From positions 403,929-467,928 of the forward strand of contig CAVSEC010000007.1 in NCBI GenBank assembly GCA_963726955.1: 64,000 nucleotides of DNA, written 5' to 3'. The notes beneath the pieces were generated by a model. That model made no database searches. It saw nothing but the letters and a program-made list of their open reading frames with translations, and had not been told where the DNA came from. Numbering within the stretch: the stretch's first letter is position 1; each line of letters starts with the position of its first letter. Shown one piece after another: positions 23,451-46,783 of this stretch. Position numbers and translations under genes: made by a program. Source of the DNA: an uncultured Gemmatimonadales bacterium. Its GTDB lineage: Bacteria; Gemmatimonadota; Gemmatimonadetes; Gemmatimonadales; GWC2-71-9.

Positions 23451-23522
23451 GTCAGGCGTCCGACTCGGCCGGGCACGAGGATGCAGGGGAGGGGAGTCAC
23501 TTTCAGCCAGGATGGGCAAGGT

Positions 23523-25871
23523 ATGCGCTGGACAATTCAACGTATGCTGATCGGCCTTGGCGCCATCGGCGCCGTGGTGGCCCTCGTGGTGGGCGAGGTG
23601 GGGTACTACTCGACCGTGGAGGCCGCCAACAGCGAGGCGCTCCTCAATCGCGAGGCGCGAGCCCTCCGCCGAGAAATGCTCGCGGACATGATGCACGACG
23701 CCTTGCGGGCGGATGTACAACGCGCGCTCCTCGCTGCCCGGATTGCGCCGCAGGATCGTGACTCGGTCCTCGCGGATGTGACGGAGCATGTTCAGACCTT
23801 TCGCGCTGCCCTGGCGGACAGCGACCTGCAGGCGGGTGGCCCTCCCATTCACCAGGTGCTCTCCGAAATACAGCCGGCGGCTGACGACTACCTCGCGACT
23901 GCGCAGGCCCTCGCGGCCCTGGCCTTCCGGGATCGGGTCCTGGCAGAGCAGCGATTCGGCCAGTTCCAGACCGCGTTCGAGCGGCTGGAGGTCGGCATGG
24001 AGAATCTCGGTGATGCGGTGCTGCAGGAGGGAGAAGGGGTCCAGGCATGGGCGGCAGAGCAGGGCATTCGCTCGCGAAGGTTGATCCGGATGTTCGCGAT
24101 CCTGGGGCTCGGCATTTCGATATTCATCGGCTGGGCGGTTGCCCGTCGGGTGACGCGTGAAGTCAGGGAGATTCAGCGGGTGACCACACTGGTCGGCGCC
24201 GGTGACTTCCGGGAGGAGGCACGGGTACTCAGCCGGAACGAACTGGGAGAGACGGCGCGCGCCCTCAACCAGGCGATCCACGGCATGCGCACCGCCCTCG
24301 CGGCCGAGCGGGTCGACTGGCAGGACGTCGGGCGGCAGCGCGCCGAGGTGATTCGGATCCGGCAGCTGGTCGAGAACGCGCCGGTCAATATCATGTATGC
24401 CGATCGGGATCTGACACTGCAGTACATGAATCCGGCGGCGAGCAGCACCTTCCGCAAGCTGGAGCGGTACCTCCCGGTGAAGGTGGAAGAGATGTTGGGC
24501 AAGTCAATCGACATCTTCCATCGCAATCCGGCGCACCAGCGGGACCTGCTGGGCGTCGCCGCGAATCTGCCGCATCGCGCGCAGATCCAGGTCGGTCCGG
24601 AGACGCTCGATTTCATGGCCTGCGCCATCAAGGATGACCACGGCGAACACATCGGCACGATGGTGACCTGGGAGTTGATCACCTCGAGACTGGCGTCGGA
24701 GCAGCAGGTCAAGGATGCGCAGGCGGCGCAGCTGCGGACGGCCGAGGAGCGCCGGAAGACCGAGCAGGCGGAGTCGGAGCGCCGCCAGCATGAAGGGTCG
24801 GAGCGCGAGGCGGAGCAGCACAGCCGGGCGGAAGTGGAGCGAGCCAGGGCGTCGGAGCTGCGCGCCAAGGTGGACGAAATCCTCGCGGTGGTGGATGCTG
24901 CGGGCCAGGGCGATCTCACCCGCGAGATCTCGGTGCGGGGGGAGGATGCCATCGGCCGGTTGGGCGAAGGACTGACCACCTTCTTCCGCAATCTGCGCGG
25001 CAGCGTCGCGAACATCGCCCGGACGGCGGAGACGGTCGCCACGACCTCGACGCAGGTGAACGCGGTTGGGCAGCGGCTGGGCGGCGCGGCTGGCGAGACG
25101 GCTGCGCAGGCGAGCGTGGTCTCGACGGCGGCGGAGGAGGTCTCGCGCAACGTGCAGACGGTGGCGTCGGGGACGGAAGAGATGAGCGCTTCGATCCGCG
25201 AGATCGCGAAGAATGCGTCGGAGGCCGCCCGGGTGGCGCTGCAGGCGGTGAAGGTGGCGGAGCGAACCAACGGCACGGTAGGGAAGCTGGGCGAGTCGAG
25301 CGCCGAGATCGGAAAGGTCATCAAGGTGATCACCTCGATCGCGCAGCAGACCAATCTGCTGGCTCTCAACGCCACCATCGAGGCGGCCCGCGCCGGCGAG
25401 GCGGGCAAGGGCTTCGCCGTCGTGGCCAACGAGGTCAAGGAACTCGCCAAGGAGACCGCACGTGCCACCGAGGAGATCGGGCGGAAGATCGAGGCGATTC
25501 AGGCCGACACCGGCGACGCGGTGAGCGCCATTCGGGAGATCAGCGATATCATCGGCCAGATCAGTGGCATCCAGACCACGATCGCGGGCGCGGTCGAGGA
25601 ACAGACGGCCACGACCAACGAGATGAGCCGGAACGTTTCGGAGGCCGCGCGCGGGGCGCAGGAGATCGCGCAGAACATCCAGGGTGTTGCGACCACCGCC
25701 CAGAGCACGACGGAGGGTGCGACTCAGAGCCAGACCGCGGCCGGCGAGCTCGCCCGTGCCGCCCGTGAGCTGCAGGCCCTCGTGGCCCAGTTCCGCTATG
25801 AGGAGGCGGGCGCCTCGGTGCGGGGTCGGGCCTCACGTCCGGTGGCGCGCCTCGCCGGGGCGAAAGCCTAG
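23523..25871 (+). CDS. methyl-accepting chemotaxis protein, 2 TM-HAMP-PAS-coiled coil-HAMP-MA
   Basis: TM segments are [21 protein letters not shown] and [18 protein letters not shown]. The PAS module reads [30 protein letters not shown]...[11 protein letters not shown]. An E/R-rich coil and [22 protein letters not shown] follow. The core is [38 protein letters not shown]. Confidence 0.9.
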
Positions 25872-26141: not shown

Positions 26142-28421
26142 ATGAGCGACATGGACGAGATCGTCAAGGAGTTCCTGGTCGAGAGTACCGAGGGCCTTGA
26201 TACGCTGGATCGCAACCTCGTTGCGCTCGAGAAGAAACCGGGCGACAAGGAGCTGATGGGCGGGATCTTCCGCGCCATCCACACGATCAAGGGCACCAGC
26301 GGGTTCCTCGGCTTCGGGCGGCTGGAATCAGTGGCCCATGTCGGCGAGAGTCTGCTCTCCGATCTGCGGGACGGCAAGAAGACGCTCACCCCGGAGATCA
26401 CCAGTGCGCTGCTGCAGCTGGTGGACGCCGTGCGGTCGATCCTCGGTGCCATCGAAAGCACCGGGGTGGACGGCCAGGACGACTTCGTTCCGCTCGTCGA
26501 GCTGCTGACGCGGCTGCAGAAGGGGGAGGCCGTCGCGGGAAAAGCTGAGGGGGCCGGGACGCCCGCAAAGGCGACACAGGCGGCGAAGCCGGAGCCGGCC
26601 GAGGTGGCAGCCGCCACCCCCGCGCCCGACGTCGCGTCCATCCCGGCCCCCGCAGCCGTGCCGGCCCCGGTCTCTGCCGTCCCCGTCGGCGAGGGCGCGG
26701 AAGCCAAGGGTCCGCAGGCGACCGACAGCAATATCCGGGTGGACGTGAGTCTGCTCGACAAGCTCATGAATCTGGTCGGCGAGCTGGTGCTGGCTCGGAA
26801 CCAGATCCTGCAGTACACCGCGACGCAGGAGGACAGCAGCTTCGTCGCGACCACGCAGCGCCTCAATCTCATCACCACCGAGCTGCAGGAAGGGGTCATG
26901 AAGACCCGCATGCAGCCGATCGGCAATATCTGGACCAAATTCCCGCGCGTGGTCCGCGACCTCGCGCTGGCCTGCAAGAAGCAGGTCCGCATCGAGATGG
27001 AAGGCAAGGAGACCGAACTCGACAAGACCATCATCGAAGCCATCAAGGATCCGCTCACCCACATCGTGCGCAACTCGGTGGACCACGGGATCGAGCTTCC
27101 CGCGGACCGGGTGGCGCGGGGCAAGCCGGCGGAGGGGTGCCTGCTGTTGCGCGCCTACCACGAGGGCGGCCAGGTGAACATCGAGATCTCCGATGACGGC
27201 GGCGGGGTCAACGTCGATCGGGTGAAGGCCAAGGCGATACAGAAAGGGTTGATCACCGCGGAGCAGGCGGCACGGATGGCCGACCGCGAGGTCGTCACCA
27301 TGATCTTCGCTCCAGGCTTCTCGACGGCCGAGCAGGTCAGCAACGTCTCCGGCCGCGGTGTGGGCATGGATGTCGTGAAGACCAACATCGAGAAGATTGG
27401 CGGCACGGTCGACATTCACAGTGTGGCGGGCCAGGGGACCACCCTCAAGATCAAGATTCCGCTCACGCTTGCCATCATCCCCGCGCTGATCGTGACCAGG
27501 GGTGGAGATCGCTTCGCGATCCCGCAGGTGTCACTGCTGGAACTGGTGCGGCTGGAGGGCGATGAGACCGGCAACTGCATCGAGATGGTCCACGGCTCGC
27601 CGGTCTATCGGCTGCGCGGCCGGCTGCTGCCGCTGGTGCACCTCTCGGATGCGCTGGGGCTCACCACCGGCGCCGCGATGGCGCCGAGGACACCGGATGA
27701 TGTCGTGAACATCGTCATCCTGCAGGCCGACGAACACAGCTTCGGGCTGGTGGTGGACGAGATCAACGACACCGAGGAGATCGTGGTCAAGCCGCTGGGG
27801 AAGCAGCTCAAGGGGATCAGCGCCTTTGCGGGCGCGACCATCATGGGCGACGGGCGGGTGGCCCTCATCCTGGACGTCCTCGGCATCGCGCAGAAATCGG
27901 CGGTGGTGTCCGAGGCGCGGGTCCGCGGTCAGGCGGAGGTCGTGGATACGCTGCGCGCTGCCGGCGACGAGAAGCAGATGCTGCTGCTGTTCCGCCTCGG
28001 CGAGGACCGCCGGATGGCCATCCCGCTCTCGATGGTGGCGCGCCTCGAGGAATTTCCCCGGAGCGCCGTGGAACGGGCCGGTGCCCACCAGGTGGTCCAG
28101 TACCGGGATCGCCTGCTGCCGCTGCTGCGCCTCACGGAGCTCCTTGGTGAGGCAGGCGGCACAGGGGAGGAGCGGGATCCCATTCCGGTCGTCGTCTACG
28201 CCCACGAGGGGCGTGATGTCGGGCTCGTGGTGGAGAACATCGTGGACATTGTGGAGGAGCACCTCACGGTGCACCGCCGGCAGCGGCCGGGCGCGGTGTA
28301 CGGCACGGCGGTGATTCAGCAAAAGGTCACCGACCTGCTGGACGTGCGGGCCCTCATCGAGGGCGCCGACGTCCTGCTGTTCGCCGGCGCCGATGTCGAA
28401 ACCGTCGGCGCGGGAGCCTGA
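26142..28421 (+). CDS. cheA: chemotaxis histidine kinase CheA (P1, no P2, P3, P4, two P5/CheW-like domains)
   Basis: P1 is FRAIHTIKGTSGFLG. An Ala/Pro-rich linker replaces P2. P3 is IRVDVSLLDKLMNLVGELVLARNQ. P4 carries DPLTHIVRNSVDHGIE, ISDDGGGV and SGRGVGMDVVK. Two CheW-like segments follow (RFAIPQVSLLELVRL...IMGDGRVALILDV and MLLLFRLGEDRRMAIPLSMVARLEEF...VIQQKVTDLLDV). Confidence 0.95.
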   Translation: MSDMDEIVKEFLVESTEGLDTLDRNLVALEKKPGDKELMGGIFRAIHTIKGTSGFLGFGRLESVAHVGESLLSDLRDGKKTLTPEITSALLQLVDAVRSILGAIESTGVDGQDDFVPLVELLTRLQKGEAVAGKAEGAGTPAKATQAAKPEPAEVAAATPAPDVASIPAPAAVPAPVSAVPVGEGAEAKGPQATDSNIRVDVSLLDKLMNLVGELVLARNQILQYTATQEDSSFVATTQRLNLITTELQEGVMKTRMQPIGNIWTKFPRVVRDLALACKKQVRIEMEGKETELDKTIIEAIKDPLTHIVRNSVDHGIELPADRVARGKPAEGCLLLRAYHEGGQVNIEISDDGGGVNVDRVKAKAIQKGLITAEQAARMADREVVTMIFAPGFSTAEQVSNVSGRGVGMDVVKTNIEKIGGTVDIHSVAGQGTTLKIKIPLTLAIIPALIVTRGGDRFAIPQVSLLELVRLEGDETGNCIEMVHGSPVYRLRGRLLPLVHLSDALGLTTGAAMAPRTPDDVVNIVILQADEHSFGLVVDEINDTEEIVVKPLGKQLKGISAFAGATIMGDGRVALILDVLGIAQKSAVVSEARVRGQAEVVDTLRAAGDEKQMLLLFRLGEDRRMAIPLSMVARLEEFPRSAVERAGAHQVVQYRDRLLPLLRLTELLGEAGGTGEERDPIPVVVYAHEGRDVGLVVENIVDIVEEHLTVHRRQRPGAVYGTAVIQQKVTDLLDVRALIEGADVLLFAGADVETVGAGA

Positions 28422-29073: not shown

Positions 29074-30843
29074 GTGCCGATGACCGCCCCGACCGCTAAC
29101 GCCGCGCGCGAGATGCCCCCGGCGGCAGCCGTCAGCGATCCGCTCTCGGCGCCACGCCTTCTGGAGAGTCTCGGGCGACTCACGGCCGTCCTGTTCCTCG
29201 CCGATCGGCACCAGCGGATCGTCGCTGTCAGCGCCGCCGCCGAGGAGGCGGTGCACCGGCTCGGCTTCGCCGCCGGTACCCTGCAGGGCATGGACCTCGC
29301 CGCCGTGCACGGCAATCCGCCCGGTTTCCGGGAGTCGGTCACCGGTGCGACAACTCTCCCGTTCGAGCACAAGATCAGGACCGAGCAAGCGATCTACAAG
29401 TGCATCATCGCGCCCGTGCCGGACGCGAGCGGTTCCCTGTCCGGGTATGCGGTCGCGTGGGAAGACCAGACCAAGCGGCAACGGATTGAAGTGGAGCTCG
29501 GGCGGGTACTGTCGATGATCGAGAGCTGCCCCACGAACATGATCTGCAGCGACCCCGATCTCACGATGCAGTACGTGAATCCCGCGGGCCGCCGATCACT
29601 GGAGGCACTCGCGCGGGTCCTGCCGGTGCGGCCTGATGAGCTCACCGGAAAGCCGATGACGATCTTCTTCGAGCGATCGAAGGAGCTCGAGCGCCGTCTG
29701 CTCGATCCGGCGAATCTGCCCTACCGGACGCGGGTCGTGTTCGGGGCCGAGACGATCGATTTCCTGGTCTCCGCCACCGTGGATCACCAGCAGCGGTACA
29801 TCGGGCCGATGCTGACCTGGGATGTTGTCACCCCGCAGCTGGCCGCCGAGCGGACCATCGCCGAGGCACGCGATCGGGAGCAGCGCGAGGCGGGAGAGCT
29901 TCGGGTGAAGGTCGACAGTATCCTGGCGTCGGTGCACGCCGCTACCACTGGGGATCTCACGCGCGAGGTGACGGTCCGCGGCCAGGACGCGATCGGCCAG
30001 CTGGGGACCCAACTGGCCACGTTCTTCACCGACCTGCGTGGCAGCATCGGGGAGATTGCCGGCCATGCCGACACCCTCGCCGCGGCGACGCAGGAGCTCT
30101 CCGCCGTCAACAAGGCGGTGAGCGGCGGGGCGGCGGATACCAGTGCCCAGGCCCAGGTGGTTGCGACCGCCTCCGGGGAGGTGACCCGCAACGTGCAGAC
30201 AGTGGCGGCCGGGGCCGAGGAGATGGGCGCCAGTATCCGCGAAATCGCCAAGAATGCCGCCGATGCGGCCAAGGTCGCGAGGGAGGCTGTGTCCCTCGCC
30301 AATCATACCAACGGCATGATGACCAAACTGGGCGAGTCGAGCCAGGAGATTGGCAAGGTGCTCAAGCTCATCACGTCGGTGGCACAGCAGACCAACCTGC
30401 TTGCGCTGAACGCGACGATCGAGGCGGCTCGCGCGGGCGAGGCGGGGAAGGGATTCGCCGTCGTGGCCAAGGAGGTCAAGGACCTCGCCAAGGAGACGGC
30501 CCGCGCCACCGAGGAAATCGGCCAGCGGATCGACGCCATCCAGAATGACACCACGGGTGCCGTCGGGGCCATCCGCGAGATCGGCTCGATCATCACCCGG
30601 ATCAACGATATCCAGACGGTCATTGCGGGGGCGGTGGAGGAGCAGACCGCCACCACCAACGAGATGGGCCGGAATATCAGCGACGCCGCGCGCGGCTCCA
30701 GCGAAATCAGCGATACGATCGCCGGGGTGGCGCAGGCGGCGCAATCCACCAGCGACAGCACTGGCAACAGCCAGAAGGCCACTCAGGAGCTTGCCACGAT
30801 GGCTGCGGATCTCCGCCGCCTCGTGGGACGCTTCAGGCTGTAG
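29074..30843 (+). CDS. soluble methyl-accepting chemotaxis protein, PAS-PAS-HAMP-like-MA
   Basis: There is no TM segment. PAS 1 reads [19 protein letters not shown]...[13 protein letters not shown] 2 reads [30 protein letters not shown]...[33 protein letters not shown] follows. The core is [38 protein letters not shown]. Confidence 0.9.
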
Positions 30844-30851
30844 AGGCTCCC

Positions 30852-32759
30852 ATGATCCATGCGCAGGGCGCCGGTGCCGCGCTGGCCGTGGCGGATCTCC
30901 CTGGTGGCGATCAGCGCGCCGGCCGCGAGGGGGAGACGATCCTGCGCGTCATCGAGGCGGTGAGCAAGGCCGCGACGGTGAAGGGCGCCATCGCCGCCAC
31001 GCTCCAGGTAATGCGGGAGCGGGAGGGCTGGATCTACGCCGCCTTTCTGCGCCGGGATGCCGTTGATGGCCTGCTCAAGTGCGCGCTCGATTCCGGCATT
31101 GTGGCGGACGAATTCCGGGAGAAGACCCGTGCGGCCAGGTTCAGCGAAGGCGAGGCGCTCTCCGGGCGCGCCTGGCGCGCCGGCGACCTGGTCTTCGTGG
31201 AGGACTTCGGCGCGGTGCCGGAGTTCGCCCGTGCACCCGTCGCCCGGCTGGCGGGCGTCCGGGCTGCGGCATGTGTGCCGATGTTCGTCAACGGAGAGAT
31301 CGTGGGGACGCTGGAGTTCTACGCCAGTACTGTCCGCGCCATGCCGCCGGAAGAGGCGGACACCCTGCGCAAGGTGGCCCATCTCGTGGCGGGCGGGATC
31401 GCACGGGTGGAGCTGTCGCGCTTCGCATCGATGATCCGGAACTCGCCGGTGCACACCTTGTCCGCCGACAAGGAGCTGGTGATCCAGTACATCAATCCCT
31501 CCGCGCACGCCTGCCTGGTGCAGCTCGAGGAGTACCTCACGGTCTCGCCCGATCAGTTGCTGGGTCAATCCGCCGATGTGCTGCACGCCGATCTCCGCGC
31601 GATGCGCGAGACCATGATGGATCCGAAGCGGCTGCCGCAGTCGCTGCAGCTGATGCTGGGGCCGGAGACGCTCGACGTGCAGGTGCACCCCACTTTTGAC
31701 GCCAGCGACCAGTTCCTGGGGCCGATGATCACCTGGACGGTGATCACCCCGAGGCTCGAGGCCGAACGCGCGGTGCAGGAGTCGGTCGAGCGGGAACGGC
31801 GGCAGGCCGCCGACCTGCAGGCCAAGGTCGACCAGATCCTCACGGTGGTCCGGGAGGCGGCACACGGGGATCTGACTCGACCCGTCACGGTCCGGGGGAC
31901 CGATGCGATCGGTCAGCTGGGCGAAGGGCTCGCCGAGCTGCTCGCGGGCTTCCGGGGCGAGGTATCGCGCATCGGGGAGCATGCCGGCACCGTCGCATCC
32001 GCCACCGAGGAACTGTCCGCGGTGAATCGCAGCCTCACCGCGGCAGCGGACCAGACGCTGGCGGAGGTCGCGATCGTTTCCGATCTCGCCGGCGGGGTCT
32101 CGCGCAATGTGCAGGCGGTGGCGCTGGGCACCGAGGAGATGGGCGATTCCATCCGGGAGATCGCCCGCAACGCGCTGAGCGCCGCCCAGGTCGCCGGGCG
32201 GGCGGTGCAGGTTGCGGAGCGGGCGGACGGCACCGTCGCCAAGCTGGGGCAGTCGAGCCTCGAGATCGGCAAAGTGATCAAGGTGATCACCTCGATCGCG
32301 CAGCAGACCAATCTGCTGGCGCTCAACGCCACCATCGAGGCCGCCCGAGCCGGCCAGGCGGGGAAGGGGTTCGCGGTGGTCGCCAACGAGGTCAAGGAGC
32401 TGGCCAAGGAGACCGCACGGGCCACCGAGGAGATCGGCCGGAAGATCGAGGCGATCCAGACCGACACCGGGCAGGCGGTGAACGCGATCCGCGAGATCGG
32501 CGAGATCATTGCCGAGATCAACGGGATCCAGACCTCGATCGCGGGCGCGGTCGAGGAACAGACCCTGACGACCAATGAAATGGGGCGGAGCGCCGGAGAG
32601 GCGGCCCGGGGTTCGGGCGCGATCGCCACGGGAATGACGACCCTCGCCCAGGCCGCGACGGGTACCCGACAAGGCGTAGGCGACAGCCAGCGTGCCACCG
32701 ACGATCTGGCCCGGCTTGCGGAACAGCTTCATGCCCTGGTGGGCAAGTTCAAGTGTTAG
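30852..32759 (+). CDS. soluble methyl-accepting chemotaxis protein, GAF-PAS-HAMP-like-MA
   Basis: The GAF-like region reads ...[12 protein letters not shown]...[20 protein letters not shown]...[18 protein letters not shown]. The PAS module reads [23 protein letters not shown]...[33 protein letters not shown] follows. The core is [38 protein letters not shown]. Confidence 0.9.
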
Positions 32760-32784: not shown

Positions 32785-34497
32785 ATGACGACGAAAACCA
32801 GCGCTTCGCGTAATGCTTCCTTCGACCGGCTCGGCGGCTTCGACGGCCTCGAGCAGGCCGTGCAACGGCTGTTCACCCGCCTGGCCGCGGATCCTGCACT
32901 GCAGTCGCTGCTGCCTGCCAGCGGGATCGAGGACGTCCGCTGGCAGGTGCAGATGCTGCTGACCGACCGGCTCGGCGGTCCCATGGCGTACGACGGCCCC
33001 GACCCCGCCACCGTCCGGTCGCAGGCCGGGATCACCCCGGAACAGGTCGGTCGGATCGGGGAGCATCTCGTCGCCGCCTTCGGGGACCTGAGCGCACCGC
33101 CACTCGCCGTGGAGGAGCTGCGCGCGGTGCTCGCCGAGTTCACGCGATCCCTCGGTATCGCCGTTGCGCCACCGGCGGCGGCCGGTCCCACGGTGGAGGA
33201 GATCCGGGCGACGCTCATCGCCCAGGCCGTGGCCGACGTTGCGCGGGCGGGGGTCGCGGATCGCCCGCTGTTCGTGCTCGATCCCGAGCTGACGCTGATC
33301 CACCTGAACGCCGAGGCCGTGCGCGGGCTCGCGGCAGTCGACACCGAGCTGCGCCGCGCCTTCCGACTCGGGGCCACGGACCTGCCCGGTCAGTCGGTGC
33401 TCCGCTTTCACCCGGCGCCGTCCCAACTGCAGGGACTGCTGCAGGACACCTCGCGTCTCCCCAAGGAGGCGACCTGGTGCTTCGGCCGGGCCGTCTGGAA
33501 GGCGCGGCTGAGCGCGGTGCGGGACGGCGCGGGGCAGCTGCTGGGCTATGCGATCGCCTGGCGCGACGAGACCGAGAGCCATCGGGCCGAGGCGGTGTTC
33601 CAGCGGCTGCGGTCGCAGGCGGAAGACCTCCCGGTGCCGATCATGTATCCGGACGCGGCCATCGAGCGCTGGTTCGGCAACGCCGCGTGCGAGCATGCGC
33701 TCCAGCGTCTCGCGTCCTACCTGCCCTATCCGGTCAACCCCCTGGAAGGGGTGCCGGTGGAGCTCTTTCTGCCTGACGAGGGCGAGCGACGCGCGCTGTT
33801 CCGCGATCCGGACCGGCTGCCGTACAAGACGCAAATCCGGATGGGCCCGGAGACGATCGCGATCCTGGTGTCGCCGATTCTGGATCAGGATCAGCACTAC
33901 CTTGGCCCGCAGATCACCTGGGAAATCGTCCACTTCACCCGGCCCGAGGACCGCGCGCCGACTGCCCCGAGGGCGACTCGGCCGGTCTCGGCTCCGCCAC
34001 CGGCGGTACCCAGAGTCGCGGCTGCTCCGGCCACGGTCGCTGCTCCGGCTGTCGACACGGCTCCGGCGACCCGGCCGGATCTGGTGCTGCGAAGCGAAGC
34101 CCGTGCGCTCGAGGCCGCCGCCGCGGACCTGCAGACGCTGGTACGTCTGCTCGACCTGGTCGCTGATCAGACGGAAGGGCGCGGGATGCCCCCCGACGAC
34201 GCCGCCGTCGAGTCGGCCGAAACGGGCGCCGCGGGTCAGGCGGAAGCGGCCATCGTCTCGGCACTGGCGACGGTGCGTCGCGCGGCCAACGAGGCGACCG
34301 GTGCCCTGATGCAGGACACCCAGGGTTTCACCGCACAGCTGCAGCAGCGGGTCCGCGAAACCATGCAGCGCACCCAGGTGTCGGCGGATGGGCTGGGAAA
34401 GATTCTGATCGCCGCCACGGCGCTGACCGAGCTGCGCGCGACATTCGGCGAGCCCGCCTCACCAGGGTCGATGGCGGAGGAAGCGGGCACCGGATGA
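32785..34497 (+). CDS. truncated-haemoglobin-like domain + PAS + PAS protein without an MCP signalling domain
   Basis: The N-terminus SFDRLGGFDGLEQAVQRLFTRLAADPALQSLL...LGGPMAYDGP...AGITPEQVGRIGEHLVAAF resembles group I truncated globins. Two PAS modules of the same type as the flanking MCPs follow (...GYAIAWRDET and ...LGPQITWEIV). An Ala/Pro linker and a helical C-terminus follow, without the [14 protein letters not shown] core. The stop overlaps the cheB start as ATGA at 34494-34497. Confidence 0.7.
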   Translation: MTTKTSASRNASFDRLGGFDGLEQAVQRLFTRLAADPALQSLLPASGIEDVRWQVQMLLTDRLGGPMAYDGPDPATVRSQAGITPEQVGRIGEHLVAAFGDLSAPPLAVEELRAVLAEFTRSLGIAVAPPAAAGPTVEEIRATLIAQAVADVARAGVADRPLFVLDPELTLIHLNAEAVRGLAAVDTELRRAFRLGATDLPGQSVLRFHPAPSQLQGLLQDTSRLPKEATWCFGRAVWKARLSAVRDGAGQLLGYAIAWRDETESHRAEAVFQRLRSQAEDLPVPIMYPDAAIERWFGNAACEHALQRLASYLPYPVNPLEGVPVELFLPDEGERRALFRDPDRLPYKTQIRMGPETIAILVSPILDQDQHYLGPQITWEIVHFTRPEDRAPTAPRATRPVSAPPPAVPRVAAAPATVAAPAVDTAPATRPDLVLRSEARALEAAAADLQTLVRLLDLVADQTEGRGMPPDDAAVESAETGAAGQAEAAIVSALATVRRAANEATGALMQDTQGFTAQLQQRVRETMQRTQVSADGLGKILIAATALTELRATFGEPASPGSMAEEAGTG

Positions 34498-35576
34498 GTG
34501 CCCGTATCCGGGTCCTCATTGTCGATGATGCGGTGATCGTCCGGCGCCTCGTCGCGCAGGCGCTGGGCAGGGATCCGGAACTCGAGGTGGTGGGGACGGC
34601 GTCCGATGGTGATGTCGCGATCGAACAGCTGAGCAGACAGCCAGTGGATATCGTGACCCTCGACGTGGATATGCCGCACATGAACGGCATGGCGACGCTG
34701 CGGGAGATCCGCGCCCGCTGGCCCCGGCTCCCGGTGATCATCTTCTCCGGCATGATCGAGCCCGGACCCGCCGAGCTGGAGGCGCTCTCTCTGGGCGCGA
34801 ACGACGTCCTGCAGAAGCTCCCGCATGAAGGCAACATGCTGAATGCGATCGAGTGGGTCGTTGAGCGCCTTGCGCCACGGCTCAAGCAGGTCGTGCGCAG
34901 CTGTCAGGGGCGGCCGCGCGAGGCTGGCAAGACCGGCGCGCCGCGCGTGATGACGCTGCGTCCCGTCGCGCCGGGCAGCCGGCCCAGGGTGCTCCTGATT
35001 GGGAGCTCGACCGGCGGGCCGAACGCGCTGGAACAGGTCCTCTCCCGTCTGCCGGCGGACTACCCATTGCCGATTGTGGTGGTGCAGCACATGCCGGTCG
35101 GATTCACCCGGCTGATGGCCGAGCGCCTCGCGGCGCTCACGCCCTTCATGGCGTCGGAGGCGGAGTCGGGGAGTGCGATGGAGCCGGGGAAGGTCTGGAT
35201 CGCTCCGGGAGACCTGCATCTCGTCATCCGGCGGGTCGGCGCAGAGATCACCCTTCAGACCAACCGTGATGCACCCGAGAATTCCTGCAGGCCCTCGGTG
35301 GACGTGCTCTTCCTGTCGGCCGTGAAGGTCTACGGGGCAGATGTGCTCGCGGTAGTCCTGACCGGGATGGGCTACGACGGACTCAAGGGGGCGGAGGGGA
35401 TCGTCGGGGCGGGCGGGCAGGTGCTGGTGCAGGATGAAGCGACGAGCGTGGTCTGGGGCATGCCAGGCGCCGTGGCGAAGGCGGGCCTGGCGAGTGGCAT
35501 CCTGCCGCTGGGCGGACTCGCCGATGCGATAATGCAGCGTACGCGCGGTGGCCTGGTCGTGGCCGCACCGTCCTGA
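34494..35576 (+). CDS. cheB: chemotaxis methylesterase CheB (REC + esterase)
   Basis: The REC domain reads RVLIVDDAVIVRRL...DIVTLDVDMPHMNG. The esterase domain carries LLIGSSTGGPNALEQVL, IVVVQHMPVGFTRLMAERL, PENSCRPSVDVLFLS, GMGYDGLKG and VLVQDEATSVVWGMPGAV. Confidence 0.9.
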   Translation: MSARIRVLIVDDAVIVRRLVAQALGRDPELEVVGTASDGDVAIEQLSRQPVDIVTLDVDMPHMNGMATLREIRARWPRLPVIIFSGMIEPGPAELEALSLGANDVLQKLPHEGNMLNAIEWVVERLAPRLKQVVRSCQGRPREAGKTGAPRVMTLRPVAPGSRPRVLLIGSSTGGPNALEQVLSRLPADYPLPIVVVQHMPVGFTRLMAERLAALTPFMASEAESGSAMEPGKVWIAPGDLHLVIRRVGAEITLQTNRDAPENSCRPSVDVLFLSAVKVYGADVLAVVLTGMGYDGLKGAEGIVGAGGQVLVQDEATSVVWGMPGAVAKAGLASGILPLGGLADAIMQRTRGGLVVAAPS

Positions 35577-35592
35577 ACCGGGAGACCGGGCG

Positions 35593-36417
35593 ATGGCCCT
35601 GAGTCCCACAGATTTCCAGTATGTGAGCACCCTGGTGCGCCAGAAATCGGCGATCGTGCTGGAAATTGAGAAGAGTTACCTCCTCGAGGCGCGGCTGACC
35701 CCGCTCGCCCGGGCGGAAGGCTTCGCGTCGCTGGATGCGATGGTGGCGCTGATGCGCGCCCAGCCGCTGAACGGACTGCATCGGAAGGTCGTCGAGGCGA
35801 TGACGACCAACGAGACCAGCTTCTACCGTGACCTGCATCCGTTCGAGGCCCTGAAGGCGGTCGTGATCCCCGAGGTGATGAAGCGCCACGCGACGGACCG
35901 CCGGCTGAACATCTGGTGCGCCGCCTGCTCGAGCGGTCAGGAGCCGTACACCGTGGCGATGACGCTGATGGAGCACTTTCCGCAGCTCGCCTCCTGGACT
36001 GTCCGGATCACGGCGACCGACCTCTCCAGCGAGATGGTCGCCAAGTCCCGGGCGGGGAAGTACGGCCAGATCGAGGTCAACCGCGGCCTGCCGGCGAGTC
36101 TCCTGCTCAAGTATTTCGAGAAGAAGGGGATGGAGTGGCTGGTAAAGCCCGAGGTGAAGCGGTGGTGCGAGTTCCGCGAGCTGAATCTGATCGAGTCCTG
36201 GGGGCCGCTGCCACCGATGGACGTGGTCTTTCTGCGCAACGTCCTGATCTACTTCGACGTGGACACCAAGCGGGCCATCCTCGGCAATGTCAAGAAAGTG
36301 CTGCAGCCCTGGGGCTATCTCTTCCTCGGCGGCGCCGAGACGACGATCAACCTGGGTGATGTGTTCGAGCGCGTGCAGTTCGACAGGGCCGGCTGTTACC
36401 GGCTCAAAGGAAGTTAG
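35593..36417 (+). CDS. cheR: chemotaxis methyltransferase CheR
   Basis: EAMTTNETSFYRDLHPFEAL, LNIWCAACSSGQEPYTVAM, ATDLSSEMVAKSRAGKY and VVFLRNVLIYFD are present. Confidence 0.9.
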   Translation: MALSPTDFQYVSTLVRQKSAIVLEIEKSYLLEARLTPLARAEGFASLDAMVALMRAQPLNGLHRKVVEAMTTNETSFYRDLHPFEALKAVVIPEVMKRHATDRRLNIWCAACSSGQEPYTVAMTLMEHFPQLASWTVRITATDLSSEMVAKSRAGKYGQIEVNRGLPASLLLKYFEKKGMEWLVKPEVKRWCEFRELNLIESWGPLPPMDVVFLRNVLIYFDVDTKRAILGNVKKVLQPWGYLFLGGAETTINLGDVFERVQFDRAGCYRLKGS

Positions 36418-36426
36418 GGGGACAGA

Positions 36427-36882
36427 ATGCAGTTTCTCGAGGAAGAGATTCGTCAGGTGACGGAGGTGGTGTGGGAGTCGGTGCTTGGCGTGAGCCTCGT
36501 CCGGCAGCCCAACGTGCCGCCGGCGCCGGCCCGAGTGGTCTCCGGGTGTGTCCAGTTCACCGGTGCCTGGGAGGGGGCCGTGACGATTGAATGCTCGGCG
36601 GACTTCGCCCGCCAGGCCGCGGCCACCATGTTCGGCGTCGATGTCGGCTCGGCCTCCGTGTCTGACACCCAGGACGCCATCGGCGAGCTGGCCAACATGA
36701 CAGGCGGCAACGTGAAGGCGCTGCTCCCTGAGCCGTGCCGGCTCTCGCTGCCCACGGTCGTGGAAGGCGCCGACTACACCACCCGGTTGCTCGGAGGAGA
36801 ACTCCTCACGACGGTCGCCTTCGAGTGCCAGGGATCACCGCTGGTGGTGCGGCTGCTCAAGAAGGCTGTCAGCACGAACTAG
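36427..36882 (+). CDS. cheX: CheX-like chemotaxis phosphatase (CheC/CheX family)
   Basis: The 151-aa ORF follows a GGGGGA ribosome-binding site. ...VVSGCVQFTGAWEGAVTIECSADFARQAAATMFG...DAIGELANMTGGNVKALL... is the CheX pattern from memory. Confidence 0.7.
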   Translation: MQFLEEEIRQVTEVVWESVLGVSLVRQPNVPPAPARVVSGCVQFTGAWEGAVTIECSADFARQAAATMFGVDVGSASVSDTQDAIGELANMTGGNVKALLPEPCRLSLPTVVEGADYTTRLLGGELLTTVAFECQGSPLVVRLLKKAVSTN

Positions 36883-36891
36883 GAGGGACGC

Positions 36892-37278
36892 ATGCAGGAC
36901 GTGCCATTTCCCCACCGGCGGGAATTCAGCCGGGTGCAGGTCCACCTCAACGCCGAGGTGACCGCCAACGGGGTCCGCCATGAAGGCGGTGCCATGGAAA
37001 ACCTCAGCCTCAAGGGCGGCTTTCTGCGCATCGCCAACGGACCGCCGGAGGGCGCCCTCTGTGACATCCGCCTGCACCTGGATGGCACCGAGGTCGTGGT
37101 GCACGCGCAGGGAACCGTGGTCCGGATGGGGCCGGCAGGTTCCGCCATCCAGTTCACCGAGATCGTCGGGCTGGACAGCCTCGAACATCTGCGGAACCTG
37201 ATCCTGTTCAACGCCCACGACCCTCACCAGGTGGAGCAGGAATTTCACGACCATCTGGGTCTCAAGCGCGACGACTGA
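36892..37278 (+). CDS. stand-alone PilZ domain protein (c-di-GMP receptor type)
   Basis: AGGAGGG lies 5 nt upstream of the ATG. The RxxxR motif is in [10 protein letters not shown] and the (D/N)xSxxG motif is in [10 protein letters not shown]. The ORF is 128 aa. Confidence 0.8.
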
Positions 37279-40068: not shown

Positions 40069-41189
40069 ATGCGCAAGATCCGCGTGCTGGTGGTCGACGA
40101 TGCGGTGGTGGTGCGGCGCCTCGTGACCGATGTCCTGGCAGCGGACCCCGACATCGAGGTCGTGGGGACGGCAGCGAACGGTCGCCTGGCGCTCGCCAAG
40201 CTGGCCCAGCTGAAGCCGGACCTGATCACGCTCGACATCGAGATGCCGGAGATGGACGGCCTGGAGACGCTGGTGGAGCTCCGCAAGAGCCACCCACGCC
40301 TGCCGGTGATCATGTTCAGCACGCTGACCGAGCGCGGCGCGGCGGCGACGCTCGAGGCGCTCGCGCGCGGGCGCCACCGACTACGTCACCAAGCCCGCCA
40401 ACGTCGGCAGCGTCACCCTCGCCCAGGAGCGGATCCGGGAGGAGCTGATCCCGAAGATCCGGGCGCTCGCCGGAAGGGGCATGCTGTCGGCCCGGCCTGC
40501 CGCGCCCGTGGCTCCGACCGCCCGCGACTCCTCCGGCGCGCTCGCCGGCCGAGCCTGCCGGTGCGAATCGATATCCTGGCGATCGGGGTCTCGACCGGCG
40601 GCCCGAACGCGCTCGCGGAGGTGCTCCCGGCGCTGCCGGCGGACTTTCCGATCCCGATCGTCATCGTGCAGCACATGCCGCCGATGTTCACCAAGTTCCT
40701 GGCCGACCGGCTGTCGAGCGTCTCGAAGCTGTCGGTCCGCGAGGGCGAAGAGGGCGGCCTGGTGGAACCGGGCGTCGTCTGGATCGCGCCGGGCAACCAC
40801 CACATGGTCGCTCCGCCGTGACGGCGAGCAGGTCCGGCTCGCGCTGAATCAGGCGCCGCCGGAAAACTCCTGCCGACCCGCGGTCGACCTGCTGTTCCGC
40901 AGTGCGGCCGCAGCTGTACGGGAACCGGGTGCTCGGCCTGGTCCTCACCGGCATGGGACAGGACGGTCTGCTCGGCGCGGGTGCGATCCGGAGCGCCGGG
41001 GGGCAGCTCCTGGCGCAGGACGAGGCGACCTCGGTGGTCTGGGGGATGCCCGGTGCCGTCGTCGGCGCAGGGCTCGCCGACCTGGTGCTGCCGCTGGAGC
41101 GCGTTTCGGCGGAGCTGACCCAGCGTGCCGGCGTGGGACGCCTGACACGGCTGCCCGGCGCCGTGGCGCCCGCGATCACCACCCGCTGA
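40069..41189 (+). pseudogene. cheB: second CheB methylesterase, at least 4 frameshifts
   Basis: The REC domain reads RVLVVDDAVVVRRL...LITLDIEMPEMDGL...ALARG. After an extra G in the run at 40369-40371 it continues ATDYVTKPANVG.... VRIDILAIGVSTGGPNALAEVL...IVIVQHMPPMFTKFLADRL then follows. PENSCRPAVDLLFRSAA and GMGQDGLLG...LLAQDEATSVVWGMPGAV* lie in further frames. Shifts are near 40370, 40555, 40815 and 40900. Confidence 0.8.
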
Positions 41190-41205
41190 GCGAAAGGACG
41201 CGCGC

Positions 41206-42066
41206 GTGCTGGGTCAGGCCGAATTCGACTTTCTGCGAGGGCTCGTCCGCGAGCGCTCCGCCATCGTGCTCGAACCGGGCAAGGAGTACCTGGTCGACAG
41301 CCGGCTGATGCCGCTGCTGCGCGAGGGGAGCTACACGACGGCGGCCGAACTGTGTGCGGCGCTCCGCACGGCCCCCCGCAGCGAGCTCGAACGGCGGGTG
41401 GTCGAGGCGATGACCACCAACGAGACCAGCTTCTTCCGCGACGTCCATCCCTTCGACGCGCTGCGCACACGCCTGCTGCCGGAGCTGCTCGCCGCCCGCC
41501 TGGCGGAGCGGAGGCTGCGGTTCTGGAGCAACGCCTGCTCCAGCGGGCAGGAGGCCTACAGCCTCGCCATGCTGCTGGCGGAACACTTTCCTCAGCTCCG
41601 GAACTGGGAGGTGAGCATTCTCGCGACCGACATCAGTCGCGACATGGTGCAGCGGACAGGCCAGGGCAGCTTCGGGCAGCTGGAGATGAACCGCGGCCTG
41701 CCCGCCCCGCTCCTGCTCAAGTACTTCACGCGCTCGGGGACCCACTGGCAGATCAAGCCCGAGCTGCGCCGCCTGGTGCTGGCACGCGAGATGAACCTGA
41801 TCACCTCCTGGCCGCCGCTGCCGCGCTTCGACGTCATCCTGCTGCGCAATGTCCTCATCTATTTCGACCTGGACGCCAAGCGCAACATCCTCCGCCGGGC
41901 CCGCCAGGTGCTCCGCCCGGACGGCTACCTGCTGCTCGGGAGCGCCGAGACGACCGTCATGGTCGACGACAGCTGGGAGCGTGTCAGTTGTGGTGCCTCC
42001 GTGGCGTACCGGCCGCTGGCCGAGGTGCCGGGGACGGCCGCCCGACCGGTGGGAGCGGCCCGATGA
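41206..42066 (+). CDS. cheR: second CheR methyltransferase
   Basis: It has a GTG start. EAMTTNETSFFRDVHPFDAL, LRFWSNACSSGQEAYSLAM, ATDISRDMVQRTGQGSF and VILLRNVLIYFD are present. Confidence 0.9.
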   Translation: MLGQAEFDFLRGLVRERSAIVLEPGKEYLVDSRLMPLLREGSYTTAAELCAALRTAPRSELERRVVEAMTTNETSFFRDVHPFDALRTRLLPELLAARLAERRLRFWSNACSSGQEAYSLAMLLAEHFPQLRNWEVSILATDISRDMVQRTGQGSFGQLEMNRGLPAPLLLKYFTRSGTHWQIKPELRRLVLAREMNLITSWPPLPRFDVILLRNVLIYFDLDAKRNILRRARQVLRPDGYLLLGSAETTVMVDDSWERVSCGASVAYRPLAEVPGTAARPVGAAR

Positions 42067-43425: not shown

Positions 43426-44269
43426 AGCGTCCGATCTGCTCAAGGGGGTGGTCAGTATCTCGACCCTGCCGGGGGTCTACCTCCGGCTCGCCTCGGTGGT
43501 CAGCGACCCGCGCAGCTCGGCCGCCGATGTGGGCCGGGTGATCGCGGACGATCCGGGCCTCACGGCGCGCCTGCTCAAGCTGGTAAACAGCGCGATGTAC
43601 GGATTTCCCTCGAAGATCGAGACGGTCAGTCACGCGATCAGCATCGTCGGGACGGCCCAGCTCCAGGATCTCGCGCTGGCGACCTCGGTCATCCGGCTGT
43701 TTGCGAGTGTGCCGGAGAATCTGGTCACCATGGAATCCTTCTGGCGCCATAGCGTGGCCTGCGGTGTCACGGCGCGGACCCTGGCGACCCGCCGGCGTGA
43801 GTCCAACGTCGAGCGCTACTTCGTGGCCGGCCTTCTGCATGACATCGGGCGACCGGTCATGTACATGCAGATCCCCGAGGAGGCCGGCGTCGCGGTGACG
43901 CGCAGTCGGGAGTCCGGCCGGTCGCTCTTCGAGATCGAGTATGAACTCCTCGGGTTTGATCACTCGCACGTCGGTGCCGCGCTGCTCGAACAATGGAAGC
44001 TGCCGCCCAGTCTGCGCGAGCCGGTCGCCCATCATCATCACCCGGAGCGCTCGCAGCGGTTTCCGGTCGAGGCCGCGCTCGTCCACGTCGCCGACCTGAT
44101 CGCCAATGCGCTGCAATTCGGTACCAGCGGCGAGCCCGGCGTGCCGCTCCTCGCGCCCGGCGCCTGGGAGGCGATCGGCCTGGCGCCCAGCGTGCTCGGG
44201 GATGTCATGGAGGAGGCCGAGACCCACTACGAGGCGGCGGTGCAGGTCATCGCGCTGGATCGCACATGA
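43418..44269 (+). CDS. HDOD domain protein (second copy)
   Basis: LPGVYLRLASVVSDPRSSAADVGRVIADDPGLTARLLKLVNSAMYG, VAGLLHDIGRPVM and LLGFDHSHVGAALLEQWKLP are present. Confidence 0.8.
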   Translation: MRRASDLLKGVVSISTLPGVYLRLASVVSDPRSSAADVGRVIADDPGLTARLLKLVNSAMYGFPSKIETVSHAISIVGTAQLQDLALATSVIRLFASVPENLVTMESFWRHSVACGVTARTLATRRRESNVERYFVAGLLHDIGRPVMYMQIPEEAGVAVTRSRESGRSLFEIEYELLGFDHSHVGAALLEQWKLPPSLREPVAHHHHPERSQRFPVEAALVHVADLIANALQFGTSGEPGVPLLAPGAWEAIGLAPSVLGDVMEEAETHYEAAVQVIALDRT

Positions 44270-46783
44270 CCACCCCACCCGTTCCCGGCGCCGATCCGCA
44301 GTGGGTGCTCGATGCGCTCGATCTGGTCGCCTCGCTGGGCGCCTTTCGAGCCGGTGAGCAGCACGACGTCACGCCGGCCGTCGTGCTGGGCGCGGCAAAG
44401 CCCGTGCTCCGCCGACTGCTCGAGTTCGACCAGGCCGCCTTCCTCCTGCTGGAGCCCGACGGTCTCGGCTTCCAGGTGGTCGACGCCGAGCCGCGCGAGG
44501 CAGGCCCGGCGCTGGAGCGCGAGGTCGACGAACAGGTCCGCGCTGGCGTGTTCGCCTGGGCCGCGCATCGGAACTCGGCCGTCCAGGTGCCCTGCGCGAC
44601 CCAGCCGAAGCGCACCGTCCTCCTGCATGCCCTCGCCACCCGCTCGCAGGTGATCGGGATGTTCGTCGGCATCGCGGGGGAATCGCTGGAGGACACGCCG
44701 GAGGCCAATCAGAAGCTGCTGTCGATCCTGCTGAGCAACGTGGCCGGCGCGCTCGAGAGTGCCCAGCTCTATCACGCGCTCTCGGCCTACAGCGAGGGTC
44801 TGGAGCGTCTGGTGGAGGAGCGGACCCGTGAACTGGTACAATCGAACGAGAGGGCCCAGGCCGCCAACCGCGCCAAGAGCGAATTCCTCGCCAACATGAG
44901 TCACGAGCTCCGCACCCCGATGAATGGCGGTCATGGGCATGGCGAGCCTCCTGCTGGATACCGAACTCAGCGACGAACAGCGGGACTTCGCGCAGACCAT
45001 CAACTTGTCCGCGGAAAACCTCCTGACCCTGGTCAACGACATCCTGGACCTGTCCAAGATCGAGGCCGGCAAGCTGACGATCGACCTGGTGGCGATGAAT
45101 CTGCGGGAAGTCGTCGAGGAGGTGGCCACGCTGCTGGGCGTCCGCGCGGCGGAGAAGGGGCTGTCCTTCGCGGCCCGTGTAGCGCCCGGCATTCCGGAGC
45201 GGGTCCTCGGCGACCCTGGCCGCTTTCGCCAGGTGCTCACCAATCTGGCCGGCAACGCCGTGAAGTTCACGGAACGGGGGCAGGTCCTCCTGGATCTCGC
45301 GCCGGTACAGCGCGACGGCAATCGGCTCACCGTGCATCTGCGCATCGTGGATAGCGGCATCGGCATCCCGGCGGAGAAGCTGGGACAGATTTTCGACAAG
45401 TTCACCCAGGCCGATGCCTCCACCACCCGACGCTATGGCGGGACCGGATTGGGGCTCGCGATCTGCCGTGAACTCGTCGAACTGATGGGCGGGCAGATCG
45501 GTGTGGAGAGCACGACGGGGGCGGGGAGTACCTTCTGGTGCACGCTGCCTTTCGAAGTGGTGCTGCCGGAGCGTGCCGCGCCGCCCCGACTCGACGGGCA
45601 GCACATCCTGCTCTCCGCCGCCGATCCCACGGAGCGGGGTCTGGTGGCGGAGCTGCTCACCGCTGAAGGAGCGAGCGTCATTGCCGCCGCGAGCGTGGGC
45701 GAGGCGCTGCGACACCTGCAGGAAGCCATCGCCGGCCGGCGGATGGTGCATTCGCTCGTGGTGGACGCGGCAGATGTCGGTTCGCTCCTGCCGTTCCTCA
45801 ACCGCACTCCCGCCCTCCGGTCCACCCGCCTGGTGCTGCTCGCTGCCGCCGACCATCGGACCGACCCACGCCTCGACGGCCTCGGCCCCCGGGCCACCTC
45901 GGTCTTCCGCCCCTATCGCCAGCGCGATCTGCTCGAGGCGGTCGGTCCCGGGGGGCACCGGCCGATCCACCCTGCGGAGAGCGCCGAGCCGGAGGGCCCG
46001 GTCCTTGGTCCTGCCCGGATCCTGCTGGTCGAGGACGGTCTCGTGAATCAGAAGGTGGCGCTGAACATGCTGCGGCGATTCGGGTGTCGCACCGACGTCG
46101 CGGGGGATGGGGTGGAGGCGCTCGAACGACTGGCCGAGGCGGCCTATGATCTGGTGTTGCTGGATTGCCAGATGCCGCGGATGGATGGATTCACCACGGT
46201 CCGCGCGCTGCGGGAGCGGGAGTCCGCGGTGGGCCAGCACCTCCCGGTGATCGCGATGACGGCGCATGCCATGCAGGGCGACCGGGAGCGCTGTCTCGCC
46301 GCCGGAATGGACGACTACCTCACCAAGCCGGTCGACCGTGAGGCACTCGCCGGCATCCTGGCCCGCTGGATTCCAGGCCGATACCTCCTCACACGGCGGG
46401 TGAGTGAGCCTGTCGTCCTCCCGGCAACGGAGCCGAGCCTGGACTACGACGTCGTCGCGGGGCTTCAGGAGCTCGAGGCCTCGGGCGAGTCCGGACTCTT
46501 CGCGGAGGTCGTCTCGCTATTTGCCGGCCAGGGACAGCTCATGATGGAGAAGTTGCACGCTGCGGTCGCGGCGGGTGATGAGGCGGGTTGGCGGCAGGCG
46601 CTGCATGGGTTCGTCGGTACCGCCGGCTCGGTCGGGGCGCTCCGACTCTCCGAGCGCTGTCGCGAGCTGGAAGAGGGAGTGGGCGGGTTGCCCGCTGACG
46701 CCGCGGCTACTCTGGCCGAGCTCGAGGAGGCCTTCGCGGAAGCGCGGGCCGAACTCGGTCGAGTCGGTGAGCTCCGTGCGTAA
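44266..46783 (+). pseudogene. tripartite hybrid histidine kinase 1 (GAF-like, HisKA, HATPase, degenerate REC, REC, HPt), one frameshift
   Basis: The ATG overlaps the HDOD stop. The H-box is [18 protein letters not shown]. An extra G at 44929/44930 precedes VMGMASLLLDTELSDEQ.... GTGLGLAICRELVELMGG follows. The REC domain reads ILLVEDGLVNQKV...LVLLDCQMPRMDGF...[26 protein letters not shown]. The HPt motif is ALHGFVGTAGSVGA. Confidence 0.85.

Follow-up and report, generated by a model that had tools for sequence, protein, structure and literature searches.

Within a chemotaxis (che) gene cluster of an uncultured Gemmatimonadales bacterium, the gene at positions 32785–34497 of the window analysed here (64,000 nucleotides of contig CAVSEC010000007.1) encodes a 570-residue protein, hereafter the target, in which a group-I truncated-haemoglobin (trHb)-like domain is followed by two PAS domains, a linker and a helical tail. 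We favour, with a probability of roughly 60%, the reading that the target is a soluble pseudo-chemoreceptor derived from an Aer2-like, trHb-coupled methyl-accepting chemotaxis protein (MCP), in which gas would be sensed by haem in the first PAS domain (PAS1) and the output delivered in trans. On this reading, the target probably works as a gas sensor in its own right and influences the chemotaxis pathway without being part of a canonical receptor. It is uncharacterised and restricted to uncultured Gemmatimonadota, and is a variant of the Aer2-like receptor combined with the trHb fold.

The open reading frame (ORF) ends in a stop codon that overlaps the cheB start at 34494 as ATGA. The ORF list and domain scans bear out this overlap as well as the location of the gene, flanked by an MCP gene and cheB, both as described in an earlier note on this DNA. 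Over its full length the target is colinear with 37 homologs of 544–646 residues. No transmembrane segment was found in it (no hydrophobic 19-mer above a Kyte–Doolittle value of 1.6), and the two MCPs encoded directly upstream (29074–30843 and 30852–32759) also lack one; the target and both MCPs are thus soluble. In an AlphaFold2 model based on 38 homologs, the predicted local distance difference test score (pLDDT) exceeds 90 for the globin and both PAS domains. The possibility that an indel had severed a downstream MA domain was rejected: no frame encodes a hidden MA domain, and such an indel is ruled out by the colinearity with the homologs, by the overlap of the stop codon with cheB, and by the fact that the 43-residue gap relative to long-tailed relatives is common to 15 sequences.

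A group-I trHb-like domain lacking the conserved haem residues

The N-terminal domain of the target matches Pfam Bac_globin (PF01152) over residues 13–119 (E = 1.8e-8, 35 bits against a gathering score of 21), as do the corresponding domains in 36 of 38 family members. This is its sole Pfam globin match, and all of its PDB matches are group I or II trHbs. The best match in a phmmer search of the PDB is M. tuberculosis trHbN (HbN; E about 1e-7), residues 12–119 of the target aligning with HbN 15–122 without a gap over 108 residues; the top entry is 2gl3, the TyrB10Phe mutant of trHbN. Foldseek comparison of the globin model with group-I trHbs, a superposition that the earlier note had proposed, gave template modelling (TM) scores of 0.80–0.88 at root-mean-square deviations (rmsd) of 1.5–1.7 Å. 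Pfam, the PDB search and Foldseek therefore agree with the original assignment of a group-I trHb-like domain.

In the ungapped alignment, the proximal His81 (F8) of HbN corresponds to Arg78 (codon 33016–33018), Tyr33 (B10) to Phe30 (32872–32874), and the Phe at CD1 to Leu43 (32911–32913), while the Gly-Gly motifs of AB and EF (G17-G18 and G64-G65) are invariant or nearly so in the family. The earlier note had read Arg at F8 correctly: the profile check that it suggested for a His at this position returned Arg together with a significant globin match. It had placed Thr (Thr31) at B10, which is one position off.

The substitutions extend throughout the family. Among the 38 aligned members, the F8 column holds Arg in 15, Ala in 13, Cys in 6 and other residues in 4 (R/A/C/M/G/V/W overall) and His in none, and CD1 is Leu, Val, Ile or Ala and never Phe (0/38). 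Phe or an aliphatic residue predominates at B10 and Ala at E7, E11 is Val or Leu, and Tyr B10 and Gln E11 are found nowhere in these members; a group-I trHb would be expected to have Phe, Tyr or His at CD1 and a polar distal network at B10 and E11. In contrast, of the nearest 20 non-family trHb domains among the matches listed (18 standalone trHbs and two MCP-fused trHbs), all 20 carry His at F8 and 18 carry Phe at CD1. Because of this difference between the family and its nearest outgroup, the loss of His F8 and Phe CD1 is, as judged from the alignment columns, a defining trait of the clade. The domain has a mean pairwise identity of 45%, compared to 18–25% in the linkers and loop, and Met67 (36/38) and Tyr69 (37/38) are near-invariant; despite the ligand loss, it is evidently under purifying selection. 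The globin very likely does not bind haem in the canonical manner, and the family-wide loss of His F8 and Phe CD1 supports the suggestion of the earlier note that it is haem-free or binds its ligand differently.

A dual-cofactor sensor, in which the globin binds haem, another tetrapyrrole or a hydrophobic ligand non-canonically in addition to the site in PAS1, appears unlikely. The fold and both Gly-Gly motifs are intact in a domain that is under selection, Met67, Tyr69 or the Cys found at F8 in six members could allow non-canonical haem binding, and other haem-free globin lineages are known to bind fatty acid (RsbR-type domains) or bilin (phycocyanin and photoglobin) (PMC8717448). However, F8 varies freely, unlike a ligand position, no member retains Phe CD1, small or aliphatic residues occupy B10, E7 and E11, and Tyr69 recurs in trHbN, which binds haem without using this residue as a ligand. 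Moreover, His F8 has been described as strictly conserved in trHbs (PMC4720485). The survey in question discarded sequences that lacked His F8 or exceeded 160 residues (PMC4720485), and of three non-haem globin families counted, none comes from the truncated-globin family (PMC8717448).

Tandem PAS domains of the Aer2 type

The NCBIfam Aer2 model matches residues 160–380 of the target with 68 bits against a cut-off of 1200, and the PDB matches of this region are the PAS structures of P. aeruginosa Aer2 (PaAer2; 3vol, 4hi4) and V. cholerae Aer2 (VcAer2; 6ceq). Foldseek also matches 3vol and 4hi4, and aligns VcAer2 PAS (6ceq) with a TM score of 0.83 and an rmsd of 1.6 Å, its output being silent for all three on whether PAS1 or PAS2 was aligned. 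The two PAS domains announced in the earlier note are therefore present, but their type, which it had called cluster-specific, is that of the Aer2 haem-PAS.

The hallmarks of Aer2 are an Eη-His haem ligand, an Iβ-Trp (or Gβ-Tyr), and an Hβ-Leu that is displaced on O2 binding (PMC10107281). PAS1 of the target has the Eη-His as H209 (33409–33411) and the Iβ-Trp, at the O2-stabilising position, as W259 (33559–33561). Each is kept in 37 of the 38 members, and the two align with H234 and W283 of PaAer2. PAS1 is thus likely to bind haem, and since it keeps both residues, the target is probably still a haemoprotein, through PAS1 and not through the globin.

In the second PAS domain (PAS2), the position of the haem His is occupied by Leu329 (33769–33771), and by Leu, Phe or Ile across the family (His in 0/38), while the equivalent of the Iβ-Trp, Trp379, is invariant (38/38). 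No region of the protein is better conserved than PAS2, whose mean pairwise identity is 66%. This domain includes two family-specific residues, Cys302 (33688–33690) and Met287 (33643–33645), each present in all 38 members. They are absent from PAS2 of the paralogous MCP described below, and might act as a thiol-based redox switch or provide another site for a ligand.

A helical tail with the traits of a decayed MCP signalling domain

No HAMP match was found in the target. The place of the HAMP region is taken by a Pro/Ala-rich disordered linker of 49 residues, which ranges from 25 to 91 residues across the family (23% Pro and 22% Ala, 25% identity) and leads into a helical tail, modelled by AlphaFold2 as a hairpin of helices 431–465 and 482–554. 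The earlier note had recognised both the Ala/Pro linker and the helical tail, whose length it put at roughly 110 residues and which is about 120 residues long. Pfam MCPsignal (PF00015) was matched by 0/38 members at E <= 0.1 in single-sequence scans, and the homology of the tail to MCPs is seen by profile methods only. Alignment of the tail profile with an MCP profile using hhalign gave a probability of 82% and a score of 43.5, compared to a maximum of 37.8 in 40 block-shuffled controls and 14.6 for the reversed profile. A tail-profile hmmsearch of the PDB matched the MCP structures 3g6b, 3g67, 4jpb, 3ur1, 2ch7 and 1qu7 (Tm14, TM1143, Tsr), with alignments in register on the hairpin tip and an 8-residue gap at the 'AGEAGKGF' U-turn. 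An exhaustive tail search of 1.84 billion representatives returned only the family itself, one long repetitive protein and ten weak outgroup matches, nine of which are bona fide PF00015 MCPs. Since these three independent profile tests agree, the tail is almost certainly a decayed MCP signalling domain. ApoA-IV, the top PDB match of the tail profile, was set aside as a composition-biased repeat with five weak stretches against the same profile segment. The earlier description of a tail without the MCP hairpin core holds in so far as MCPsignal is not matched and the tip is absent; the tail is nonetheless MCP-derived by the profile matches.

What has been lost is the part of the domain that contacts the kinase. 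The hairpin U-turn of the CheA/CheW-binding tip is deleted in all members. The 23 members with long tails carry an extra ~43 residues with the motif 'IARRTNxLALDAAL', which resembles the MCP tip motif; the subclade of the target is without this segment and thus also without the N-helix tip motif 'IARRTNxLAL'. In the predicted model of one long-tail member, the former tip appears straightened into a single 91-residue helix. With its tip missing and its bundle set apart from PAS2 by a disordered linker, the target is highly unlikely to control CheA canonically, and any action is therefore expected in trans.

The helices of the tail were also scanned for the strict methylation consensus [ASTG][ASTG]xx[EQ][EQ]xx[ASTG][ASTG]. 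No site was found in the helical tails of the family, whereas every one of the window's five MCPs has 1–3, and the MH1-equivalent pair is 'AD' in the target and QE or EE in 11 of the 38 members. The idea that the tail serves as a methyl sink, that is, as a CheR/CheB substrate, is unsupported, given the lack of such sites in the helices and the 'AD' pair of the target. No conserved C-terminal peptide was seen in the family when the C-terminal pentapeptide was compared. The best-conserved motif of the tail, 'LRxEARALExAAxEL' (target residues 435–452, 34084–34140), aligns with the methylation-site-like segment 'AQALAASSEEL' of the neighbouring MCPs, and may represent a former methylation site or a pseudo-substrate.

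Relatives and ancestry

The closest architecture within the window is that of the soluble MCP at 29074–30843, which is 35% identical to the target over PAS1–PAS2 (BLASTP, E = 3e-31) and likely represents the ancestral architecture minus the globin. The earlier note had described the target as the neighbouring PAS-PAS MCP with its output removed and a globin added. The paralogy and the added globin stand, but the output has been crippled rather than removed, an MCP-derived tail remaining. Two further MCPs of the cluster carry an Aer2-type PAS with the His. Such a domain with the haem His is thus present in four cluster proteins (23481–25871, 29074–30843, 30852–32759 and 32785–34497), and much of the che cluster seems to serve the sensing of gas or redox state.

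Two metagenomic proteins with the order trHb, PAS/GAF, Aer2-type PAS and MCP (P0049 and P0050) are the top non-family scorers against a hidden Markov model of the family globin. They keep Tyr B10, Phe CD1, His F8, the PAS Eη-His and a full MCPsignal domain, and occupy the same operon slot as the target, before (cheY-)cheB-cheR-cheX. From these residues and domains they look like the functional ancestral type. Truncated globin-PAS proteins, of which the earlier note was aware of none in a che operon, do therefore exist in such operons in metagenomes. Fusions of an intact group-I trHb with PAS/GAF, Aer2-type PAS and a full MCP, encoded in che operons at L022:489-2768 and L023:669-3530, are trHb-coupled chemoreceptors with two putative haem sites. 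No description of trHb-PAS/GAF-MCP fusions was found in the literature searched.

Distribution and genomic context of the family

A search of 5.8 billion proteins returned about 48 homologs of the target at 41–67% identity, most of them full length, and the aligned family of 38 has 47 invariant residues. The full-length fusion thus recurs, which answers the orthologue search proposed in the earlier note. All 16 loci from GTDB representative genomes belong to metagenome-assembled genomes (MAGs) of Gemmatimonadales or Gemmatimonadota.

The gene directly downstream of the target is cheB in 10 of the 16 species loci and cheR in the other 6. The order CheA-CheW-MCP(PAS-PAS)-[MCP(GAF)]-target-CheB-CheR-CheX-PilZ is kept; at one locus the target has been relocated to a second cheB-cheR module, away from the MCP genes. 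At two loci no MCP gene adjoins the target, which has cheW upstream in L016 and lies between two cheR genes in L020.

That the target is a non-functional relic, a decaying duplicate of a trHb-coupled MCP heading for loss, is very improbable. Such a fate would fit the joint decay of three functional elements (haem ligands of the globin, His of PAS2, tip of the MCP domain), as well as the frameshifts in neighbouring genes of the window. Against it stand an intact full-length ORF in at least 38 lineages at the above identities and with the invariant residues, domains at 45–66% identity compared to the much lower values of the linkers, conserved synteny and start/stop overlap with cheB, and the gain of the family-specific invariants C302 and M287. 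The features of the target and of the genes discussed most are listed in Table 1.

Table 1. Coordinates in the window of the target gene, its parts, and two neighbouring genes
Feature	Residues	Position	Strand	Evidence
Whole target gene: soluble protein, trHb-like / PAS1 / PAS2 / Pro-Ala linker / bundle almost certainly decayed from an MCP	1–570	32785..34497	+	ORF list, homolog colinearity, hydrophobicity
Group-I trHb-like domain	12–122	32818..33150	+	Pfam, trHbN alignment, Foldseek, column counts
Inter-domain helix, globin to PAS1	137–154	33193..33246	+	AlphaFold2 secondary structure, pLDDT >90 from residue ~140
PAS1, Aer2-type haem-PAS (haem binding likely)	159–272	33259..33600	+	PDB 3vol/4hi4/6ceq, column counts, PAS alignment
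PAS2, Aer2-type fold without haem His	273–384	33601..33936	+	alignments, column counts
Pro/Ala-rich disordered linker in place of HAMP region	385–433	33937..34083	+	pLDDT 41–53
Helical tail, almost certainly a degenerate MCP signalling-domain remnant	434–554	34084..34446	+	AlphaFold2, family alignment, hhalign, PDB profile, exhaustive search
Paralogous soluble MCP: PAS1 with His, PAS2 without His, intact MCPsignal		29074..30843	+	BLASTP, PAS residue table, Pfam
cheB		34494..35576	+	Pfam/NCBIfam; start overlaps target stop

Several other genes of the window deserve mention. A cheX gene and a single-domain PilZ gene (36427–37278, +) follow cheR (35548–36417) and are kept in nearly all loci examined; the PilZ protein may link cyclic di-GMP to adaptation, much as P. 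aeruginosa does through MapZ and CheR1. The CheA of the cluster (26142–28421, +; 759 residues) has an unusual C-terminal arrangement, with two CheW-like stretches recognised by Pfam. A second cheB (40069–41320, +) shows at least three frame changes (0 to 1 to 0 to 1 to 2), its first ORF matching only positions 2–78 of 174 of Pfam CheB_methylest. It is either a pseudogene or the product of long-read indel errors, and a split second cheB is also found in MAG L001. A hybrid histidine kinase (43993–46783, +) is apparently split by a frameshift, with ORF 43993–45354 ending in HisKA 1–19/66 and ORF 44924–46783 starting with HisKA 19–66/66; elsewhere it is a single protein of 806–831 residues. The split kinase adds to the suspicion of assembly indel errors; the target gene is intact.

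Proposed mode of action

In the mechanism that we favour, haem b would be held by PAS1 and not by the globin, and its ligand would be a diatomic gas, O2 or another, as in Aer2. The globin, itself without haem ligands, would act as a scaffold or modulator of the PAS dimer, like the N-terminal domains of other Aer2 receptors, and output would occur in trans via contacts of PAS2, the MCP-derived bundle, or both. Sensors that act in trans have precedents in CetA/CetB (PMC2628428) and CetB2/CetA2 (PMC12442639), and accessory control of adaptation has one in MapZ-CheR1 (PMC6370697). We tentatively propose CheB/CheR as the point of action because one of their genes always adjoins the target, because the cheB start overlaps its stop codon, and because MapZ-CheR1 offers a precedent, although this is far from certain; action through partner MCPs or the receptor array is a slightly less probable option.

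A version of the latter in which the target is the sensor half of a split receptor, docking on the paralogous soluble MCPs (29074–30843 and 30852–32759) or on the array and modulating CheA control as CetB does with CetA, is possible, if on balance doubtful. The PAS1-PAS2 region is paralogous to that of the adjacent MCP, the target is usually encoded straight after these MCP genes, and all three proteins are soluble. In addition, long-tail members keep the N-helix motif 'IARRTNxLALxAAL' aligning with the MCP tip region, and bipartite PAS/MCP receptors are established (PMC2628428, PMC12442639). On the other hand, the tip-motif segment is fully deleted in the target subclade, heterodimerisation of PAS domains is not expected by default at 35% identity, the neighbouring MCPs, unlike CetA, all have sensor domains of their own, and an adjoining MCP gene is missing in L016 and L020.

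A number of points weigh against the soluble pseudo-chemoreceptor that we prefer. The haem-free globin is deduced from its missing ligands, and the possible non-canonical ligands named above would contradict it. Haem binding by PAS1 is deduced from two conserved residues, and the PaAer2 Hβ-Leu used in Aer2 signalling (L264) is replaced by Ala240 in PAS1. The short-tail subclade taken alone shows no signal against the MCP profile (hhalign probability 1.8%), so the MCP origin of the target's own tail rests on its alignment with long-tail relatives. The AlphaFold models are of monomers and uninformative on the oligomeric state of the bundle. The adjacency to cheB and cheR may merely reflect a conserved operon order, with receptors before adaptation genes, and not contact. 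Finally, every homolog comes from an uncultured MAG.

A bolder and rather improbable extension is that the family constitutes a new kind of accessory protein, an O2-responsive pseudo-receptor whose first tail helix serves as a tethered pseudo-substrate or docking site for CheB/CheR, such that gas bound at the PAS1 haem tunes adaptation and not the kinase, and whose globin is the first haem-free 2/2 lineage. The first tail helix does align with the methylation-site-like 'AASSEEL' region of the neighbouring MCPs, with the acceptor Glu pair mostly lost. If this were true, the globin would be a fourth independent non-haem globin, beside RsbR, phycocyanin and photoglobin.

Implications

A conserved and selected trHb domain without the haem ligands, part of a signalling protein, has gone uncatalogued because surveys defined trHbs by the proximal His and at least one discarded all others, or those longer than 160 residues (PMC4720485). 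It would be a natural 2/2 globin fold used otherwise than for canonical His-ligated haem binding. The family is also a case of receptor decay into an accessory factor, with the sensors kept and the kinase-control tip lost, in which intermediates (the long-tail members) and an apparently intact ancestral type (trHb-PAS-MCP) still exist in nature. Group-I trHb-coupled chemoreceptors thus exist in bacteria and are not listed in a globin review (PMC7475203).

Comparison with known systems

The target resembles the Aer2 receptors of P. aeruginosa, V. cholerae and V. vulnificus (3vol, 4hi4, 6ceq) in its PAS fold, in the Eη-His and Iβ-Trp of PAS1, in its tandem PAS domains and N-terminal accessory domain, in being soluble, and in its location in a che cluster with CheB/CheR. 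It differs in having no 'Aer2 core', defined as the C-terminal-most PAS-haem joined directly to a di-HAMP and kinase-control domain (PMC10107281): the haem His is missing from its last PAS, no di-HAMP follows, and a disordered linker precedes the tip-less bundle to which the kinase-control module is reduced. With M. tuberculosis trHbN and other group-I trHbs, it shares the 2/2 fold, both Gly-Gly motifs and the ungapped alignment over 108 residues at an rmsd of about 1.6 Å; unlike them, the family has neither His F8, Phe CD1, Tyr B10 nor Gln E11, and is fused to signalling domains. Chimeric T globins of bacteria have been listed only for T2 and T3 (PMC7475203). The fusions P0049 and P0050 have the same N-terminal group-I trHb, Aer2-type PAS and operon slot, and differ from the target by their haem residues and full MCPsignal.

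The N-terminal domain of RsbR, photoglobin and phycocyanin offer a parallel as ligand-less globin folds in signalling proteins (PMC8717448). They do not belong to the trHb (2/2) family, whereas the target globin matches Bac_globin only, and would therefore represent an independent loss of haem within the trHb lineage. In HemAT and other globin-coupled sensors, also found in a chemotaxis setting, a globin likewise precedes MCP-derived sequence, but their globins are haem-binding, of the 3/3 S family and joined to an intact MCP domain (PMC7475203), while that of the target is of the T family. CetB/CetA and CetB2/CetA2 are similar in that a PAS sensor without its own kinase-control domain acts on the che pathway in trans. 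CetB, however, is a small protein with a single flavin adenine dinucleotide (FAD)-PAS and a sensor-less MCP as partner (PMC2628428, PMC12442639), and in a Pfam scan of the window no such sensor-less, CetA-like MCP was evident near the target, which combines PAS domains of the haem type with a vestigial MCP bundle.

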